Shown here in pieces: positions 10,875 to 48,139 of a stretch of 64,000 nt of DNA. Positions within the stretch are counted from its first letter, which is position 1. Every line of letters starts with the position of its first letter. The translations under genes were made by a program, and so were the position numbers. The notes under the pieces are model-generated. The model ran no database searches. It saw only the letters and a list, made by a program, of their open reading frames with translations, and was not told the DNA's origin. The stretch spans positions 17,384 through 81,383 of IMG/VR virus record IMGVR_UViG_3300045988_118801. One strand, given 5' to 3'. Source of the DNA: a virus.

Positions 10875-11259
10875 TCTTATTTCCCTCCTTTCCGACTTTA
10901 ATATGCAAGAAATCAAGATTTGTCATTTGAGGATATACTCTGTACCACTTTTTCAAGAAAGTCCAAGCATCAAGGTTATAAAGACGCTTTATATCTTCTT
11001 CAAGTAGCACAATATTCTTATCTTCCCAGCTTACAACCTTTGCAGTTATCTTGTCGGCAAATAATAAGTATTTGTCGCCTTTAGACAACACAAATCCGCA
11101 GTTGTTCTGTATAGCAAGCAAGGGAACAATTACCTCCTGACTGAATCTGTGTGCTATCTTGTATGTATTTTCACTGTTATTATCCATAGACATATCTGTT
11201 ATATCGAAAACTCCCAATCTGTTTAACAATCGGATTGCTTCACCTAGCGTTTGTGCCAT
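10867..11259 (-). CDS. Hypothetical protein
   Basis: ORF track; overlaps neighbours at both ends. Confidence 0.5.
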   Translation of the reverse strand: MAQTLGEAIRLLNRLGVFDITDMSMDNNSENTYKIAHRFSQEVIVPLLAIQNNCGFVLSKGDKYLLFADKITAKVVSWEDKNIVLLEEDIKRLYNLDAWTFLKKWYRVYPQMTNLDFLHIKVGKEGNKNE

Positions 11260-11979
11260 TAGAAATCTTCTGAATTAAGTTCAACTTTTACGTTTTTATC
11301 CGCTATAATCGGTCTTATCCCAACTTCTTCAAATACCATTTTCTGAAATAGCTTTTCGTCACTTTGTCCGTCAGATAAATGTACAAGCATCAAAGTTCTA
11401 AGTTCGGGATTCATGTTTCTCTTGATAGCTTCTATTGTCTGATTTATCTCCATGTGATACTCGTTATGAGAACGTATTTCCTGATTCCGGCATAGATTGT
11501 CTATCATCAAATCCTCGCTATTGTTTGCCTCTATCAGTAAATGATTCAGACCTTTTATCTTATAAGGGAAGCTAACCGCATCCGTGCAAAAGACCAAACT
11601 TCCGAACTCTTTATGAGTGATCAAAAAGGAATAATTCTCACAATTATGCTGAACAGGTAAAGCCATAACCACAAATCCACCAATCTTGTACTGAATTTTA
11701 GGTTTCAATACTTTTACTCCTTTAAAATTATTCGCTACTTCTTGATTTGAGTAGACTGGTATTTGTGATTTTAGTGCGTTAGGAATGTATTTGGAATGGT
11801 CTGACCTACGAATGGGCGTGCGAAATTAACACGCCCAATACTTTTTCTATTTTATAGTCCAACATTTCCAATACCTCATTCCACTTGCAACCTAATTCTA
11901 AGATAAGACTTTCTTTTTCGGTTTGTAGCAAGTAGCAATTTTCTTTGCTACCACTACCAATTACCTTTAGTGTTGCCAT
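11259..11979 (-). pseudogene. MBL-fold hydrolase/nuclease interrupted by a 7-nt insert containing TAG inside the HxHxDH motif
   Basis: From ATG 11979: MATLKVIGSGSKENCYLLQTE...GVLISHAHS, then TAG at 11808-11806. The shifted frame continues SDHSKYIPNALKSQIPVYSNQEV... to 11259. Confidence 0.7.
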
Positions 11980-12072: not shown

Positions 12073-12420
12073 TTAATCTTCTTCTTCATCATCTAAATAT
12101 TTAAAAAATAAATCTTGTTTATAACACCATGTTTTTATATCCATATCTTTTACAAAATCTTTCCAATTATTGGTATCGTAATAATTAATCTCACTCAATG
12201 TTTTATCGGATTTAATTATTATTAATGTATAATTTTCTATTGGTTTCTTATCTATATCATGCCAAATAGCTTTTATTATCCATTTAGCTCCGTTAGCAAA
12301 ACATCTTAATGAGTTATACCAAGCAAGGCTTATATCACATAATTGACGATGTTCGTCATAATATCAAGAAGCTCCATCATAAATAGTTTCACTATCTATT
12401 GGTTTTACTATTTCTATCAT
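12073..12420 (-). pseudogene. DUF551-like small protein with in-frame TGA at codon 19
   Basis: The ATG at 12420 overlaps the upstream stop (ATGA). TGA is at 12366-12364. The C-terminal GAKWIIKAIWHDIDKKP...KTWCYKQDL is paralogous to 32964..33290. Confidence 0.6.
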
Positions 12421-13288
12421 ATTGTATCTATTTTTAAATGACATTCTTCTCTAAACATTAACTGGTATTTCGGTTTTATTAGATAATAAGCCAATGTTTC
12501 GATGAAATCATTATCATCATTTGTTCTACCTTGTATTTTAAAATGATTAATTCCTAAATTTAGACAAGTATTAATCATATCGTTTGTTACAACTTGTGGA
12601 GCATCTAATATCTCATAAAGATGTCCTTTACCGCAATAACTCTCATGGGGACATTTAAATGTAATACCATCACCATTTATATTTAAACGAGATATATACT
12701 CATAATGGTTCTTTCTTGATTTACAATCGTTAGGACAAATTGTATTAACAATTATTTCAAGTTTATTACGAGTATGCTCAGGGAATAATGATATGGTTTC
12801 CCAATCATTTATCATGCTTTTACTTAACACTATGCGTTTATATTGGTCTGTCTTTTTAATTATAGTTTCAAAATCAATACAAGCAGTGGTTGACAATATT
12901 AATTGCCCTCTCCTTACACACTGTGTCCCTAACCATTCTTCTATATCAGAATTTGCTACACAAAAAAAGGTTTATTTTTATTAAAAACTTCAACAACTTT
13001 TGATGCGAATTTATCAGGGAATTGTGATTTGTCCATAAACAAGTTGCTCATAATTATTGTCGGTTGAATGTTATGCTCAATACAAAAATCGCTAACCTCC
13101 TCCTCGTTATAAAAATTTCCACTATTTCTTCCTCCGTTTGCTATACCACCATTAGAACCATAAAAAGAAGATATAACTACATTGTCCTTAAAAATGTAAG
13201 GGAATTTTTCTTTTAACAAAACAACTCGTTTCATTATATGGAATTTCTCAAACAATCCAGCTATATTAAAATAAGATTTTTGCTCCAT
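12417..13288 (-). CDS. Peptidase-U32-family-like Fe-S protein encoded by two ORFs joined by a -1 shift at a U7 run
   Basis: ORFs 12956..13288 and 12417..12896. The -1 frame is open from 12971 and continuous into the second ORF. Motifs LEIIVNTICPNDC and GINHFKIQGRT recall the U32 signature and its LKIEGR box. Confidence 0.45.
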
Positions 13289-13333: not shown

Positions 13334-14170
13334 TTAAAATTCAGGTTCGTTCTTCTTTTCTTCGGCTGGCTTTAAAACCTCACCCGTCTGAACGTCTACA
13401 ACTTCTCCTTCCTCTGTTTTGATTTCTTCGGCTTCTGCGTCAATTACCTCTTTATCATTGTAGTTTGGTTTAGCATTTCCTAAATCTTTAGTGTCGCCAC
13501 TAAACGATGCTTGGTCTGATTCGATAGCTGTGATAAACTCAATACTCTTAGGCGCATACTTTTTCAAAAGATATTTAAGCACTGTTTTTAGAGCCATGCT
13601 GTTAAAATCCTCACACCAAAGTCCAAAACTACGTTTGTATGTCTGTGAAAATCTCAATGCGTGCTTTTTAACTTCTTCAATAGTCCAATAAACGGTCTTT
13701 TGATAACCATTTGTCAGCTTAAATGATGCCATATAACCAATGATTTCATCAGATTCACGTTTATCCTCGTCAAAGATGTATTCTCCTGTAAAGCGGTTTT
13801 TCTTGACTAATTCACCTTTATACACTGGCTCATTTGCAATGTAAACAAACTGTCCTGTACGCAAACACAAATCCATCCAACCATCTCGCATGATTTGGAA
13901 TGTCGCAGTAGTTTTCTTTGTTTTACCGTCCTTAAATGGGATAATAGCCGACAACCCCAAGTTTGGATTGATAGGTAAATCAAGTGCTGCTGCTTGTCCT
14001 GCCGCAAGAATAATGCTATTTGTATCCGCTTCTTGAAGAAGTTTGTTATTTTGGTACACATTCATAATACTTGTTAAGAACCCTGCTGATTTCTTACCTA
14101 ACATATCAGCAAATCTTTTCTGAATTGAATCAGTCGCTAATGCTTGTTTTAATGTTAATTCGTTTGCCAT
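13334..14170 (-). CDS. recT: RecT-family single-strand annealing recombinase
   Basis: SIILAAGQAAALDLPINPNLGLSAIIPF, YQKTVYWTIEEVKKHA and an acidic C-terminal tail fit the RecT pattern. Confidence 0.85.
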   Translation of the reverse strand: MANELTLKQALATDSIQKRFADMLGKKSAGFLTSIMNVYQNNKLLQEADTNSIILAAGQAAALDLPINPNLGLSAIIPFKDGKTKKTTATFQIMRDGWMDLCLRTGQFVYIANEPVYKGELVKKNRFTGEYIFDEDKRESDEIIGYMASFKLTNGYQKTVYWTIEEVKKHALRFSQTYKRSFGLWCEDFNSMALKTVLKYLLKKYAPKSIEFITAIESDQASFSGDTKDLGNAKPNYNDKEVIDAEAEEIKTEEGEVVDVQTGEVLKPAEEKKNEPEF

Positions 14171-14207
14171 AATAAATACTTTTATTCTTTATAAAGTTAC
14201 AAAATAT

Positions 14208-14630
14208 TTAGATTAAATCCAAAATTTTTGTCCGATTTATTCCAATCATTCCCATGTTATACCCTTGTTTCAGGTAATCTTCCATAATCTTTGTTGCTTC
14301 CTTTACATCGGTTGCACAAACAAGAACGGCAGATTTCTGTTCCTTTTCTTCACCTGCATCGTCAATATAAATATCCACGATTGTAGCTTTGAAGAAAGGT
14401 TTGTCTTCTGTTTTGGTGTTTACAATTTCTTTAATTTTAGAAACTACGATGCTATAAACATCGCATTTATTATTGTAAAGTTCATTTGCCTTGTAGTATG
14501 CTTCCAAAGCATTTTCACATTCACAGATATAGTGTTCGTTTACTTGTTTCAATTCACAAGCTGTTCCTCCTGCTTTTGAAGGTTTGCAGGGAACTTCTTT
14601 TTCTACTGATAGTTTTACTTCAAAATACAT
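14208..14630 (-). CDS. DUF4494-like protein
   Basis: An MYFEVKL start and the overall pattern recall DUF4494. Weak; from memory. Confidence 0.4.
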   Translation of the reverse strand: MYFEVKLSVEKEVPCKPSKAGGTACELKQVNEHYICECENALEAYYKANELYNNKCDVYSIVVSKIKEIVNTKTEDKPFFKATIVDIYIDDAGEEKEQKSAVLVCATDVKEATKIMEDYLKQGYNMGMIGINRTKILDLI

Positions 14631-17316: not shown

Positions 17317-17385
17317 ATCTATATGTTTTTAATGGTTTGTTTTCTTGTTACAAAGATAGCAAATTGGTTTGAAGCTTCAAAGTAT

Positions 17386-35957: not shown

Positions 35958-37343
35958 ATGAGTAAATTCAGCAAAAAAGAAAAATCAGTAAAAAACAGAG
36001 CTGGCGGTATCGCTTACAAAGAGAGTGAAAACATGGAACTTGTATCTATGCTATTGTGTTCTTTTATGAACGATAAATTCTATGAGAATACAAAAGATTT
36101 TGAATCAAGACTTGAAACATGTATAGAAAAGTGTGATAAGCTATTTGCGGCAAAAGCAATAGTATATGCCAGAAAAGAATTTGGAATGAGAAGTGTAACT
36201 CATGCAGCGGCTTCAATACTCGCCAAGCATGTGTCAGGTGAACCTTGGGCAAAATCATTCTATAATAATGTCGTTTATCGTTTGGATGATATTACTGAGA
36301 TAATGGCTTACCATTTTTCCAAACAGAATAAGCTATCAAGTGCTATGAAGCGTGGGTTTGCTATGGCTTTCAACAGATTTGACGAATACCAGATTGCAAA
36401 GTACAAAGGCAGTAATAACTCAATCAAGCTTGTCGATGCGGTAAATATGATTCACCCTAAAAAATCTGCAAAGAACGGAGATGCTATAGAAAAGCTGGTT
36501 AATGGAACTCTGAAATGCTCTGAAACATGGGAAAGCATGTTGTCTGATGCCGGCAACGACAAAGAAGCAAAAATAAAAGTATGGAAGAGCTTAATTTCTG
36601 AAAATAAGCTTGGATATATGGCACTACTTCGTAATGTGCGAAATATCGTATTGCTTGAAGACGATGAATTAAAAGCAATGTGCTATAAGGCACTTGTAAA
36701 CAAAGACGCTATCCATAAATCATTGGTTTTACCTTTCAGATTTTTGACTGCATACGAACAGTTATCATTTGATTCAGAGGCGATGTCATACATAAGTCAG
36801 GCTTGCGAAATTGCTTGCGACAATGTACCTAAACTTGATGGTAAAACTCTGGTTGCACTTGATGTAAGTGGTTCTATGTATCGTGTTTCAAAGATAGCTT
36901 CTTTATTTGCGGCAGCATTTGTTAAATCTAATCATTGTGACCTTGTTTCTTTCGATTATTCTGCCAGATACATAAATGTCAACTGGAATGACAGTTTGCT
37001 GACAATCCAAAGACAATTAAACTTCTGTGGTGGTGGAACAAATTTCCCTTCTATATTCAATGTTGCTAACAAGAAATACGATAGGGTTATCATTCTTTCG
37101 GATATGCAAAGCTGGATGAACAGACATTCCCCTAAACAAGCGTTTAAGTTTTATAAATCAAAATTCGGAATTAAAGACTGTAAGGTTTATTCAATAGACC
37201 TTCAAGGATATGGAACTTTACAGCTACCCCAAAAAGATGTATTCTGTCTTGCTGGCTTTAGCGAAAAAGTCTTTGACCTTATGAATCTAATAGAGCAGGG
37301 ATATAATGCTCTTATGGATAAAATCAATGAAATAACGCTGTAA
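35958..37343 (+). CDS. rsr: Ro60-related TROVE plus vWA protein (Rsr-like)
   Basis: VKNRAGGIAYKESENMELVSMLLCSFMNDKFYE, GYMALLRNVRNI, the MIDAS motif LVALDVSGSM, CGGGTNFPSIF and RVIILSDMQSW parallel Deinococcus Rsr as I remember it. Confidence 0.8.
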   Translation: MSKFSKKEKSVKNRAGGIAYKESENMELVSMLLCSFMNDKFYENTKDFESRLETCIEKCDKLFAAKAIVYARKEFGMRSVTHAAASILAKHVSGEPWAKSFYNNVVYRLDDITEIMAYHFSKQNKLSSAMKRGFAMAFNRFDEYQIAKYKGSNNSIKLVDAVNMIHPKKSAKNGDAIEKLVNGTLKCSETWESMLSDAGNDKEAKIKVWKSLISENKLGYMALLRNVRNIVLLEDDELKAMCYKALVNKDAIHKSLVLPFRFLTAYEQLSFDSEAMSYISQACEIACDNVPKLDGKTLVALDVSGSMYRVSKIASLFAAAFVKSNHCDLVSFDYSARYINVNWNDSLLTIQRQLNFCGGGTNFPSIFNVANKKYDRVIILSDMQSWMNRHSPKQAFKFYKSKFGIKDCKVYSIDLQGYGTLQLPQKDVFCLAGFSEKVFDLMNLIEQGYNALMDKINEITL

Positions 37344-46477: not shown

Positions 46478-47014
46478 ATGCTTGAAATATCTAAAGAAAT
46501 TTGGAAGGAATCAATATATCCTCAGTATTTAGTCTCAAATTTAGGGAGAGTAAAAAATAAAAATGGTAAAATATTATCTAAAAGGGTTTGCACTTCTAAT
46601 GGTTACAGTTATGTATCTTTGTGGATAAATGGAGTAAATAAATGTCAAAAGGTTTCTCGTTTAGTTGCATTCTCTTTTTTAGAAAAGGATGAAGGTAAAG
46701 AATTTGTAGACCATATAAACACAATAAGGACAGACGATAGAGCTTGTAATTTAAGATGGTGTACAAGAAGTGAAAATATGAACAATGAAATCACTAAAAA
46801 TAGAATGCAAAATAAACCATTTAGAAGAAATTTTAAAAGAATGAAACCTATAGTGCAATTATCTGAAAATGGTGAATTTATTAAAGAGTGGGAATCTGCA
46901 ACTTTGTTTGGGGAGAGTATAAATAAAGATGTATGTGGTAATATAAACGCTTGCATTAATGGAAAACAAAAAACAGCTTATGGATTTAAATGGAAATACA
47001 AAGATGAAAATTGA
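46478..47014 (+). CDS. HNH homing endonuclease (NUMOD4 plus HNH_3-like)
   Basis: YLVSNLGRVKNKNGKIL ... VDHINTIRTDDRACNLRWCTRSENM. Confidence 0.8.
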   Translation: MLEISKEIWKESIYPQYLVSNLGRVKNKNGKILSKRVCTSNGYSYVSLWINGVNKCQKVSRLVAFSFLEKDEGKEFVDHINTIRTDDRACNLRWCTRSENMNNEITKNRMQNKPFRRNFKRMKPIVQLSENGEFIKEWESATLFGESINKDVCGNINACINGKQKTAYGFKWKYKDEN

Positions 47015-47546
47015 AACTTTAGAGATTGCCGGAATTGCGAGTGTGTTGCGTGCGTTGAGATTACCTTTTGGTAAGGATTGTAGAAGTGATGCAACAAGTA
47101 CCTTTGAAGAAATAAGAGAAACCTTACTAAGTTCTTCTTGTGCGAGAATACACGAAAAAGACATGAAACTAATGTCTACACTTGTAAAACGTGGAGATGA
47201 GCACGCAAAAGCATTGAGAGGAATTGTAGTATATGCTGAAATATCAGCACCAATTTGGTTTTACAGAGAATTGGAAACATACAGAATAGGTCGTGAAAGA
47301 CTTTCTTCCGAATCTACTATGCACATTGAATGTAAAGGCTTGTCGGGTGAAGAGTTGGAGAAAGCCAAAGACGCAATTCCTATGGGACATATTCAAAAGA
47401 CGGTAGATATGTTTTCTTATCAGTGCCTTAGACGAATTTACTTCCAAAGAAGAAATCACCGCTTACCTATGTGGCACGACTTCTGTAAATGGATTGAATC
47501 ATTACCATATGCTCACGAACTGATTATATGTGATAAGGAGGTCTAA
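47004..47546 (+). CDS. ThyX-like (flavin-dependent thymidylate synthase fold) protein with degenerate RHR signature
   Basis: MKIETLE...GDEHAKALRGIVVYAEISAPIWFYRELETYRIGRERLSSES...YFQRRNHRLPMWHDF parallels ThyX. The canonical RHRxxSxxxxSxR reads TYRIGRERLSSES here. Confidence 0.55.
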   Translation: MKIETLEIAGIASVLRALRLPFGKDCRSDATSTFEEIRETLLSSSCARIHEKDMKLMSTLVKRGDEHAKALRGIVVYAEISAPIWFYRELETYRIGRERLSSESTMHIECKGLSGEELEKAKDAIPMGHIQKTVDMFSYQCLRRIYFQRRNHRLPMWHDFCKWIESLPYAHELIICDKEV

Positions 47547-47918: not shown

Positions 47919-47993
47919 GGGCAAATGGGTGAGTGATTTAACCAACACTCTGCAAAGGGTGTTTTTACAGCGGTTTGAATCCGCTTTTGCCCT
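47919..47993 (+). tRNA. tRNA-Cys(GCA)-like gene with non-canonical 8-nt anticodon loop
   Basis: Acceptor stem GGGCAAA/TTTGCCC is a perfect 7 bp. U8 and A14 are present. The T-arm is AGCGG-TTTGAAT-CCGCT and the discriminator is T. The anticodon arm is ACACT-CTGCAAAG-GGTGT, and no CCA is encoded. Confidence 0.55.
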
Positions 47994-48139
47994 CTATGTT
48001 TTCATAGATATTTGTTTTTCACCATGAGCAAGAGTTGTGTTCTCATATTATTACAGTTTAAATTTTTTACGTAAAAGGGTTAGCGATAGGTTTTTCATGG
48101 TGGCTTATCGCTGGCTCTTTTTTTATAGGAGGTTAATTT

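Follow-up and report, generated by a model that had tools for sequence, protein, structure and literature searches.

Enzymes of the U32 superfamily that have been characterised are Fe-S, O2-independent and prephenate-dependent hydroxylases, which act on RNA pyrimidines or on quinones (PMC6747719, PMC5727448, PMC6599085, PMC10990095). UbiU and UbiV each hold a 4Fe-4S cluster by means of four conserved cysteines, spaced CX6CX16CX38C in UbiU and CXnCX12CX3C in UbiV; the pattern of most U32 families is CX6CX15CX3/4C (PMC6747719). Genes that change frame within a mononucleotide run have also been described, among them herpesvirus thymidine kinase, where a 'savior' indel in a G7 run is compensated by low-level frameshifting (PMC5009743). 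According to the same recoding review, published in 2016, no natural in-frame stop-hops were known (PMC5009743), and our literature search found no report of a natural stop-hop after that review. Here we analyse a stretch of 64,000 nucleotides (nt) of viral DNA, hereafter the window (IMG/VR record IMGVR_UViG_3300045988_118801, positions 17,384 to 81,383). It contains a U32-like gene that is split into two frames at a run of seven T and, 0.6 kb downstream, a metallo-beta-lactamase (MBL)-fold hydrolase gene with a separate interruption.

The original prediction, made from the letters of the window, described the U32-like gene as divided at a perfect U_UUU_UUU heptamer and proposed either programmed −1 frameshifting or transcriptional slippage, or else a homopolymer indel. 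As a description of the sequence it was accurate, including the upstream open reading frame (ORF), the run, the opening of the −1 frame and the fusion product (coordinates of all features are collected in the table below). The upstream ORF of 110 amino acids (aa), read on the minus strand, has the 3′-end AAA CCT TTT TTT GTG TAG. The −1 frame is open from position 12971 and leads through FFCVANSDIEEWLGTQCVRRGQLIL into a TTG-started ORF (12896..12417, minus strand). Addition of one T to the run results in a 290-aa product with the sequence ...NKPFFCVANSD... (the conceptual fusion). The heptamer, CC[U UUU UUU]G, does fit the X_XXY_YYZ pattern in frame, but it is nothing special in the window, because the long ORFs of this DNA (GC content 34.8%) contain 78 such in-frame heptamers, including 3 T7 and 9 A7. 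Runs of A or T of at least 7 nt number 32 in the window. Other homopolymer-linked frame junctions of the window appear to be ordinary gene overlaps and were set aside. Reassignment of TAG or TGA was likewise rejected for the U32-like gene: reading TAG as sense past PFFV lengthens frame 0 by only ~15 codons.

To place the split gene among its relatives, we searched 5.8 billion proteins with the 290-aa fusion, which returned 53 homologs. Single proteins of 281–364 aa make up 51 of them, and all of these except P0049, P0052 and P0053 cover 94–99% of the fusion. The two short homologs (P0047 and P0050) were considered as a recurrent break at the same site and rejected, as both end where their contigs end and continue through the junction without interruption. 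In the family the junction lies inside an unbroken conserved block, F-C-V-A-N...E-W-L. The 90% cluster that holds the two fragments of the window also contains intact 290-aa members. One of these, P0178, occurs on five contigs from several samples and shows just 2 differences from the conceptual fusion in 290 residues; it carries NKNKPFFCVANSD as plain in-frame sequence, the same as at the fusion junction. The 110-aa ORF matches residues 1–109 of this intact protein without a difference.

We compared the run itself at the DNA level, using loci from contigs that encode homologs and from alignment-based scans. In L001–L006, which are 87–93% identical to the window, the run is T5 (CC(A/G) TAT TTT TGT) and the ORF is intact; the same holds for six further viral contigs with (T/A)AT TTT TG(T/C). 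Five near-identical loci from five samples (L019–L023, 96–99.7% identical over 1.3–3 kb) all have T8 (CCT TTT TTT TGT) and a single ORF. T7 is found in the window and in L018, a Logan contig 69,890 bp long, the two being 100% identical over 3.5 kb. In total, the T7 allele is present on three contigs of 70–82 kb (Logan, ENA and JGI/IMG) from at least two samples. Other searches added little: blastn of the locus against GenBank phages gave no match, and tblastn gave just three unannotated gut 'Bacteriophage sp.' records at 23–27% identity. Neither a search of viral contigs for the exact junction pattern nor scans of viral and metagenome contigs with a single protein as query produced a match.

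Run length in related phages had been proposed as a check of the original prediction, and it turned out to be informative: T8 in near-identical strains and T5 in distant ones, with every relative intact. Of the options put forward, the homopolymer indel was the right one, since near-identical strains have T8 and one ORF; programmed frameshifting and transcriptional slippage did not survive the comparison, as neither T7 nor the two-frame layout is conserved in relatives. The prediction had also allowed that the run might really be 6 or 8 nt long and the split a plain assembly error. The functional allele is indeed 8 nt long, but T7 recurs, so that the second half of this expectation is unlikely to hold. 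We consider it very likely that the U32-like gene is a single gene of ~290 aa that has suffered a strain-specific T8→T7 frameshift mutation and is decaying together with its neighbour, a gene for a 115-aa partner protein with no family match. The T7 allele itself is most likely a real pseudogenising mutation.

Further changes in the same strain bear on this conclusion. We scored a change as private when at least two near-identical relatives (four for the U32-like and partner genes) shared one state and the window had another. The two genes carry exactly four private changes, none of them synonymous: loss of the T, E157K and Y242C in the U32-like gene, and in its partner the nonsense change W19* (TGG→TGA). 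Codon 19 of the partner is TGA in the window and L018, and TGG in all relatives (L001, L003, L006 and L019–L023). In the same lineage, the private changes of RecT are 15 synonymous and 2 conservative, and those of the C-terminal part of the MBL-fold gene 4 and 1, respectively. Damaging changes thus amount to 4 of 4 in the U32-like and partner genes versus 3 of 22 in RecT and the MBL C-terminal part (hypergeometric p ~0.002). Because all four private changes are damaging and those of the flanking genes are mostly synonymous, we regard the two genes as a decaying module. For annotation, the two ORFs are to be handled as one disrupted gene without recoding significance.

The likely history of the run can be outlined from the alignment. 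A Tyr→Phe substitution (TAT→TTT) in the sub-lineage of the window created the T8 run, CCT TTT TTT TGT, from which one T was then lost in the strain of the window, presumably by replication slippage. After this loss, translation would end two codons further on, and the protein would lack its C-terminal two thirds, which hold the conserved Cys185, Cys189 and Cys213 and the KIQGR box, save for traces of full-length product made by slippage, so that function has probably been lost. Length variation was also observed at the other end of the gene, where the adjacent A-run is 5, 7 or 8 nt long among relatives (compare the ends in L001 and L003). In the sub-lineage of the window, which includes the intact P0178 and P0179, the stop codon of the U32-like gene is changed from TAA to TTA (12417–12437, minus strand), which adds six residues (LKIDTI) to the protein, up to the TGA that overlaps the ATG of the partner.

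The original prediction had assigned the protein to the U32 family from two sequence motifs. In Pfam, the window fusion reaches PF01136 (Peptidase_U32) with 13.2 bits (E 0.055) over residues 226–269, a segment that covers GINHFKIQGR, and 31 of 34 family members touch the same model at E ≤ 1 (best E 3.2e-11). PHROGs and NCBIfam gave no match for the fusion. The AlphaFold2 model built on a 34-sequence alignment has a predicted local distance difference test score (pLDDT) of 91.4 and a predicted template modelling score (pTM) of 0.90. When it was compared with the PDB by Foldseek, the top match was the U32 peptidase Mk0906 (5D88; E 2.3e-7, probability 1.00, template modelling (TM) scores 0.54/0.62), followed mostly by generic TIM-barrel enzymes at E 4.5e-4 or weaker. 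In BFVD the top match was a 'Peptidase' of 269 aa from Escherichia phage OLB35 (UniProt A0A3G3MCS7, E 3.7e-10). The assignment therefore stands at the level of fold and remote homology, though not at that of the Pfam threshold. These data support the view that the protein belongs, as judged by its predicted fold, to a divergent and unannotated phage branch of the U32 superfamily with an atypical cysteine pattern.

The proposed four-cysteine motif, C-x3-C-x23-C-x5-C, was correct in its first three positions (C185, C189 and C213, present in 33–34 of 34 members) but not in the fourth, C219, which is present in just 10. C110 and C137, each found in 30 of 34 members, are better candidates for a fourth ligand, giving a conserved family spacing of C-x26-C-x47-C-x3-C-x23-C. 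Plausibly, from its conserved residues, the protein is a TIM-barrel-like 4Fe-4S enzyme with three to five conserved cysteines; by analogy with characterised members, it may bind an Fe-S cluster and perform hydroxylase chemistry. In an anoxic host, the targets of modification by a phage U32 enzyme could be nucleic acids or cofactors. The homologs form a coherent phage family of ~50 clusters with a ~290-aa U32 fold, all named 'hypothetical protein', P0053 being the only one with a precomputed PF01136 annotation. The statement that the function of such a phage enzyme would be unexplored remains valid, with the qualification that some phage genomes already annotate U32-type 'peptidases'; a literature search for phage U32 proteins returned nothing relevant.

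We weighed several other explanations of the T7 run. In the first, −1 frameshifting on U_UUU_UUU, or transcriptional slippage, would be programmed to fix the ratio of the 110-aa to the 290-aa product. The heptamer does lie in the correct frame, with a 0-frame stop two codons 3′ of it, but it is one of many in the window. A programmed site should be conserved, and since the T7 site is not, this explanation fails: neither the heptamer nor the two-frame layout is found in any relative (T8 with one ORF in five, T5 with one ORF in 14 other loci). Moreover, no structure is predicted 3′ of the run, where 102 nt fold with a minimum free energy (MFE) of −17.2 kcal/mol versus a shuffle mean of −17.1 kcal/mol (z = −0.02); the 110-aa product has no independent conservation; and the C-terminal part has acquired damaging changes at near-invariant residues. 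We regard a programmed site as extremely improbable. An artefact of sequencing or assembly, in which the true phage run is T8 and the consensus is short by one T, is very unlikely. No artefactual indel is more frequent than a wrong homopolymer length, and the functional allele is exactly one T longer, but the identical T7 appears on three long contigs in three repositories and at least two samples, one of them without a single difference from the window over 3.5 kb, and a homopolymer miscall would not yield the three further private point changes, all of them damaging. Because several assemblies agree and other damaging substitutions accompany it, T7 is probably a real mutation and not an assembly error.

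Both run lengths do occur among near-identical strains, as would be expected if the tract were a contingency switch, or a 'savior indel', that toggles the U32-like and partner module by T8/T7 changes and leaves residual enzyme through low-level slippage; homopolymer indels offset in this way are documented for the herpesvirus thymidine kinase G7 run (PMC5009743). Such a switch is very unlikely here, as T7 is seen in only one strain, the long run is confined to a narrow sub-lineage, and the non-reversible nonsense codon of the partner together with two damaging substitutions points to decay. Several considerations do weigh against a decaying U32-like gene. Four private changes are a small number, and the T7 contigs, known as assemblies from at least two samples, are possibly not fully independent. 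A U7/A7 run can slip spontaneously, at the ribosome or in transcription, so that a trace of full-length protein is conceivable. As for the family, the PF01136 score of the window protein lies below the gathering threshold (13.2 versus 22.4 bits), and PDB sequences searched with a profile yielded no U32 match, only chance matches to pesticin. What is directly observed is the loss of one T, its confinement to a single strain and the damaging changes that accompany it, and on balance we retain strain-specific pseudogenisation as the explanation of the split.

Table. Features of the two interrupted genes and of their surroundings. Positions refer to the window unless a contig is named. For junction types of the MBL-fold gene the carrying contigs are listed; the last in-frame codon and the stop open the junction, and the resume codon follows the slash.
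Feature	Position or contigs	Strand	Details
U32-like gene, 5′ part	12956..13288	-	frame 0; codons 1-110, then TAG at 12958..12956
T7 run of the coding strand (plus-strand A7)	12962..12968	-	site of one-base deletion from T8
U32-like gene, 3′ part	12417..12971	-	−1 frame; 184 open codons, TGA at 12419..12417; holds conserved Cys185/189/213 and GINHFKIQGR box
E157K, GAA>AAA, window-private	12819..12821	-	Glu in 31/34 homologs
Y242C, TAT>TGT, window-private	12564..12566	-	Tyr in 33/34 homologs
115-aa partner gene	12073..12420	-	ATG overlaps stop of U32-like gene (ATATGA)
W19* in partner gene, TGG>TGA	12366..12364	-	cuts 115-aa partner
MBL-fold hydrolase gene	11259..11979	-	interrupted in HxHxDH; ATG 11979; stop TAA 11261..11259
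MBL gene, hairpin	11837..11813	-	
MBL gene, last in-frame codon	11811..11809	-	TCG
MBL gene, stop	11808..11806	-	TAG
MBL gene, 7 extra nt	11808..11802	-	TAGGTCA, ending in synonymous TCA; GAC resume at 11801
HNH homing endonuclease (NUMOD4/HNH_3)	L019 1339-2106; L020 187-954; L023 525-1283		
MBL junction type A	window, L018, L020, L021		TCG TAG G TCA / GAC CAT; 7 extra nt
MBL junction type B	L190		TCG TAG CT / GAC CAT; 5 extra nt
MBL junction type C	L003, L004		GGT TA GGC / GAC CAC; 5 extra nt
MBL junction type D	L184, L185		GGC TAA CAAA GGA / GAT CAT; 10 extra nt
MBL junction type E	L186		GGC TGA A GGC / GAC CAT; 7 extra nt
MBL junction type F	L002		CGA TAG CGT / CAC TCC GAC CAT; 6 extra nt
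MBL junction type G	L016, L026, L105		TGT T AGC / CAC CAA GAC CAT; 4 extra nt
MBL junction type H	L187-L189		TGT TAG AGC / CAT CAA GAC CAT; 6 extra nt
MBL junction type I	L060 group, L136, L191		CTT T / GAC CAY (CUU UGA C, prfB +1 site); 1 extra nt
MBL junction type J	Cellulophaga phage phi18:3 (L192, KC821620 gp020/gp019)		CAA TGA CAG / GAC CAT; 6 extra nt

The interruption of the MBL-fold gene weighs more than the finding on the U32-like gene. The gene reads ...ISHAHS-TAG and resumes with DHSKYIP... seven nt later, within the HxHxDH motif. Every near-identical strain that covers the site has this interruption, and interruptions recur in many lineages with different sequences: the extra nt number from 1 to 10 and come in ten variants, found in gut-phage contigs and in the cultured Cellulophaga phage phi18:3. 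The stop directly follows the last in-frame codon in all ten junction types. Of the nine non-overlapping types, six have a triplet synonymous with the last in-frame codon just 5′ of the resume codon (Ser, Gly three times, Arg and Gln), for which the chance is ~1/16 each (binomial p ~4e-6); the landing codons of types B, G and H are imperfect, which weakens a stop-hop reading. When the extra nt were removed, 11 of 11 tested copies gave an ORF of 237–238 codons with a canonical HxHxDH.

Purifying selection acts strongly on the two halves of the interrupted copies. Their ratio of nonsynonymous to synonymous substitution rates (dN/dS) is 0.08–0.20, also near dS saturation and within a shared junction lineage, and in the N-terminal part (55–57 codons) the proportion of nonsynonymous differences (pN) is well under that of synonymous ones (pS). 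Because of these dN/dS values and the intact ORF halves, the interrupted copies are not pseudogenes, an explanation that we consider ruled out. About one third of the closest 120 MBL protein clusters are C-terminal fragments that start at the motif, and more distant homologs (33–40% identity) are intact. Cultured phages carry homologs under the names metal-dependent hydrolase or Apyc1-like anti-Pycsar nuclease. Reassignment of TAG or TGA was rejected for this gene too, as most junction types need a frame change and not readthrough. An enzyme split into two polypeptides is unlikely, given that in the window the first start codon lies 31 codons past the resume point and the DH of the motif would be lost.

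A GC-rich hairpin ends 0–4 nt 5′ of the take-off codon in interrupted genes, and its arms, in which V-G-V codons pair with H-x-H codons, covary between lineages. Averaged over 10 interrupted lineages, its MFE is −17.1 kcal/mol, versus −9.2 kcal/mol over 64 intact homologs (p = 8.6e-5), and a stem of at least 9 bp is present in 8 of 10 versus 4 of 64, respectively. The hairpin is not exclusive to interrupted genes, being also found in the intact gene gp021 of phage phi19:3 and in three distant intact genes. Around it, the sequence is mosaic. Outside the hairpin-junction segment, the window and L016 share ~95% identity; conversely, L016/L187 and window/L190 are nearly identical only at this segment. 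The MBL-fold genes of phi18:3 and phi19:3 are identical save for a 6-nt insert and ~23 substitutions in the following 90 nt, a difference that looks like a conversion tract. The hairpin-plus-junction segment thus behaves as an exchangeable cassette. Mobile HNH endonucleases could explain such exchange at the MBL motif, and the cassette may protect motif-coding DNA from a homing endonuclease or throttle enzyme synthesis.

With slightly better than even confidence, on the pattern of the junction sequences, we favour expression of the MBL-fold gene by natural short-range bypassing, a 'stop-hop', or by a +1 shift at a shifty stop. If true, the gene would be a natural case of an architecture that has until now been seen only in synthetic constructs. 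A stop-hop in this gene can be tested directly in culture, with phi18:3 as the interrupted and phi19:3 as the intact phage.

Both interrupted genes belong to a module for recombination and replication in a phage contig of ~81 kb, of which the window is a part; the phages come from gut-type metagenomes. The gene order, DUF4494 – RecT – U32-like – 115-aa partner – MBL-fold hydrolase, is the same in close relatives. Elsewhere the window encodes an integrase, a resolvase, a beta-clamp, a DnaB-like helicase, a DNA methylase and a PAPS-reductase-like protein; Rfam found no family in it at the gathering threshold. Some near-identical strains have, between DUF4494 and RecT, a gene for an I-HmuI-like HNH homing endonuclease (NUMOD4/HNH_3); it is missing at ~14170–14208 of the window, in L018 and in L021. 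A rearrangement around the module is evident in L003-type phages: the first ~30 MBL codons stand at their usual place fused to an unrelated ORF (L003 2843–3265), and a complete, interrupted MBL copy is located upstream of the U32-like gene.

Three other loci of the window were noted. At 46478–47546 (plus strand), two ORFs in different frames overlap at an A6 run (46968–46973), one of 178 aa for a NUMOD4/HNH_3 endonuclease and one of 195 aa; with intact relatives of the endonuclease at ~255 aa, this may be another frameshifted or two-frame gene. ARAGORN predicted a tRNA-like gene with a four-base anticodon (gcaa) and an 8-nt anticodon loop at 47919–47994 (plus strand), for which the Rfam tRNA model stayed below the gathering score. 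Frameshifting and hopping are known effects of tRNAs with an expanded anticodon, and by this analogy the gene may be relevant to MBL recoding. A Ro60/TROVE protein with a vWA_Ro60 domain (E 1.9e-23) is encoded at 35958–37343 (plus strand). Bacterial Ro60 orthologs work with Y RNAs, and none was found in the window by Rfam at the gathering threshold.

Compared with the U32 enzymes RlhA, TrhP, UbiU/UbiV and Mk0906, the phage protein shares the fold and a weak but consistent PF01136 similarity over GINHFKIQGR, and, as in UbiU and UbiV, several of its conserved cysteines could bind a 4Fe-4S cluster. It differs from the superfamily in being shorter (~290 aa, one domain), in its sub-threshold Pfam score and in being encoded in a recombination module adjoining RecT; the spacing of its cysteines also departs from the CX6CX15CX3/4C of U32 families. 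The OLB35 'Peptidase' is likewise a phage-encoded, single-domain protein with a U32 fold (TM 0.60/0.64); at 17% identity and from an enterobacterial phage, it is equally uncharacterised.

As to the split, herpesvirus thymidine kinase G7 and homopolymer-indel pseudogenes resemble the U32-like gene in that a one-base change in a mononucleotide run divides an otherwise intact gene, and slippage could conceivably give trace rescue, as in such pseudogenes. Unlike thymidine kinase, the U32-like gene shows no sign of selection for the broken state, and its damaging mutations suggest decay. Classical programmed −1 frameshifting (dnaX, IS elements, tail chaperone G/GT) shares the X_XXY_YYZ heptamer, but known sites are conserved, are accompanied by stimulators and give two functional products, and none of this applies to the U32-like gene. 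The MBL-fold gene is closer to known recoding systems. Its stop after the take-off codon, with synonymous landing in most types, recalls the synthetic 'stop-hops' of Weiss et al. 1987, junction type I is identical to the +1 site of prfB, and the hairpin 5′ of the junction is a likeness to bypassing in T4 gene 60, where the gap is 50 nt as opposed to the far shorter ones here. Unlike the known stop-hop and bypass systems, this candidate has its site in a catalytic motif and occurs in many variants within one family.

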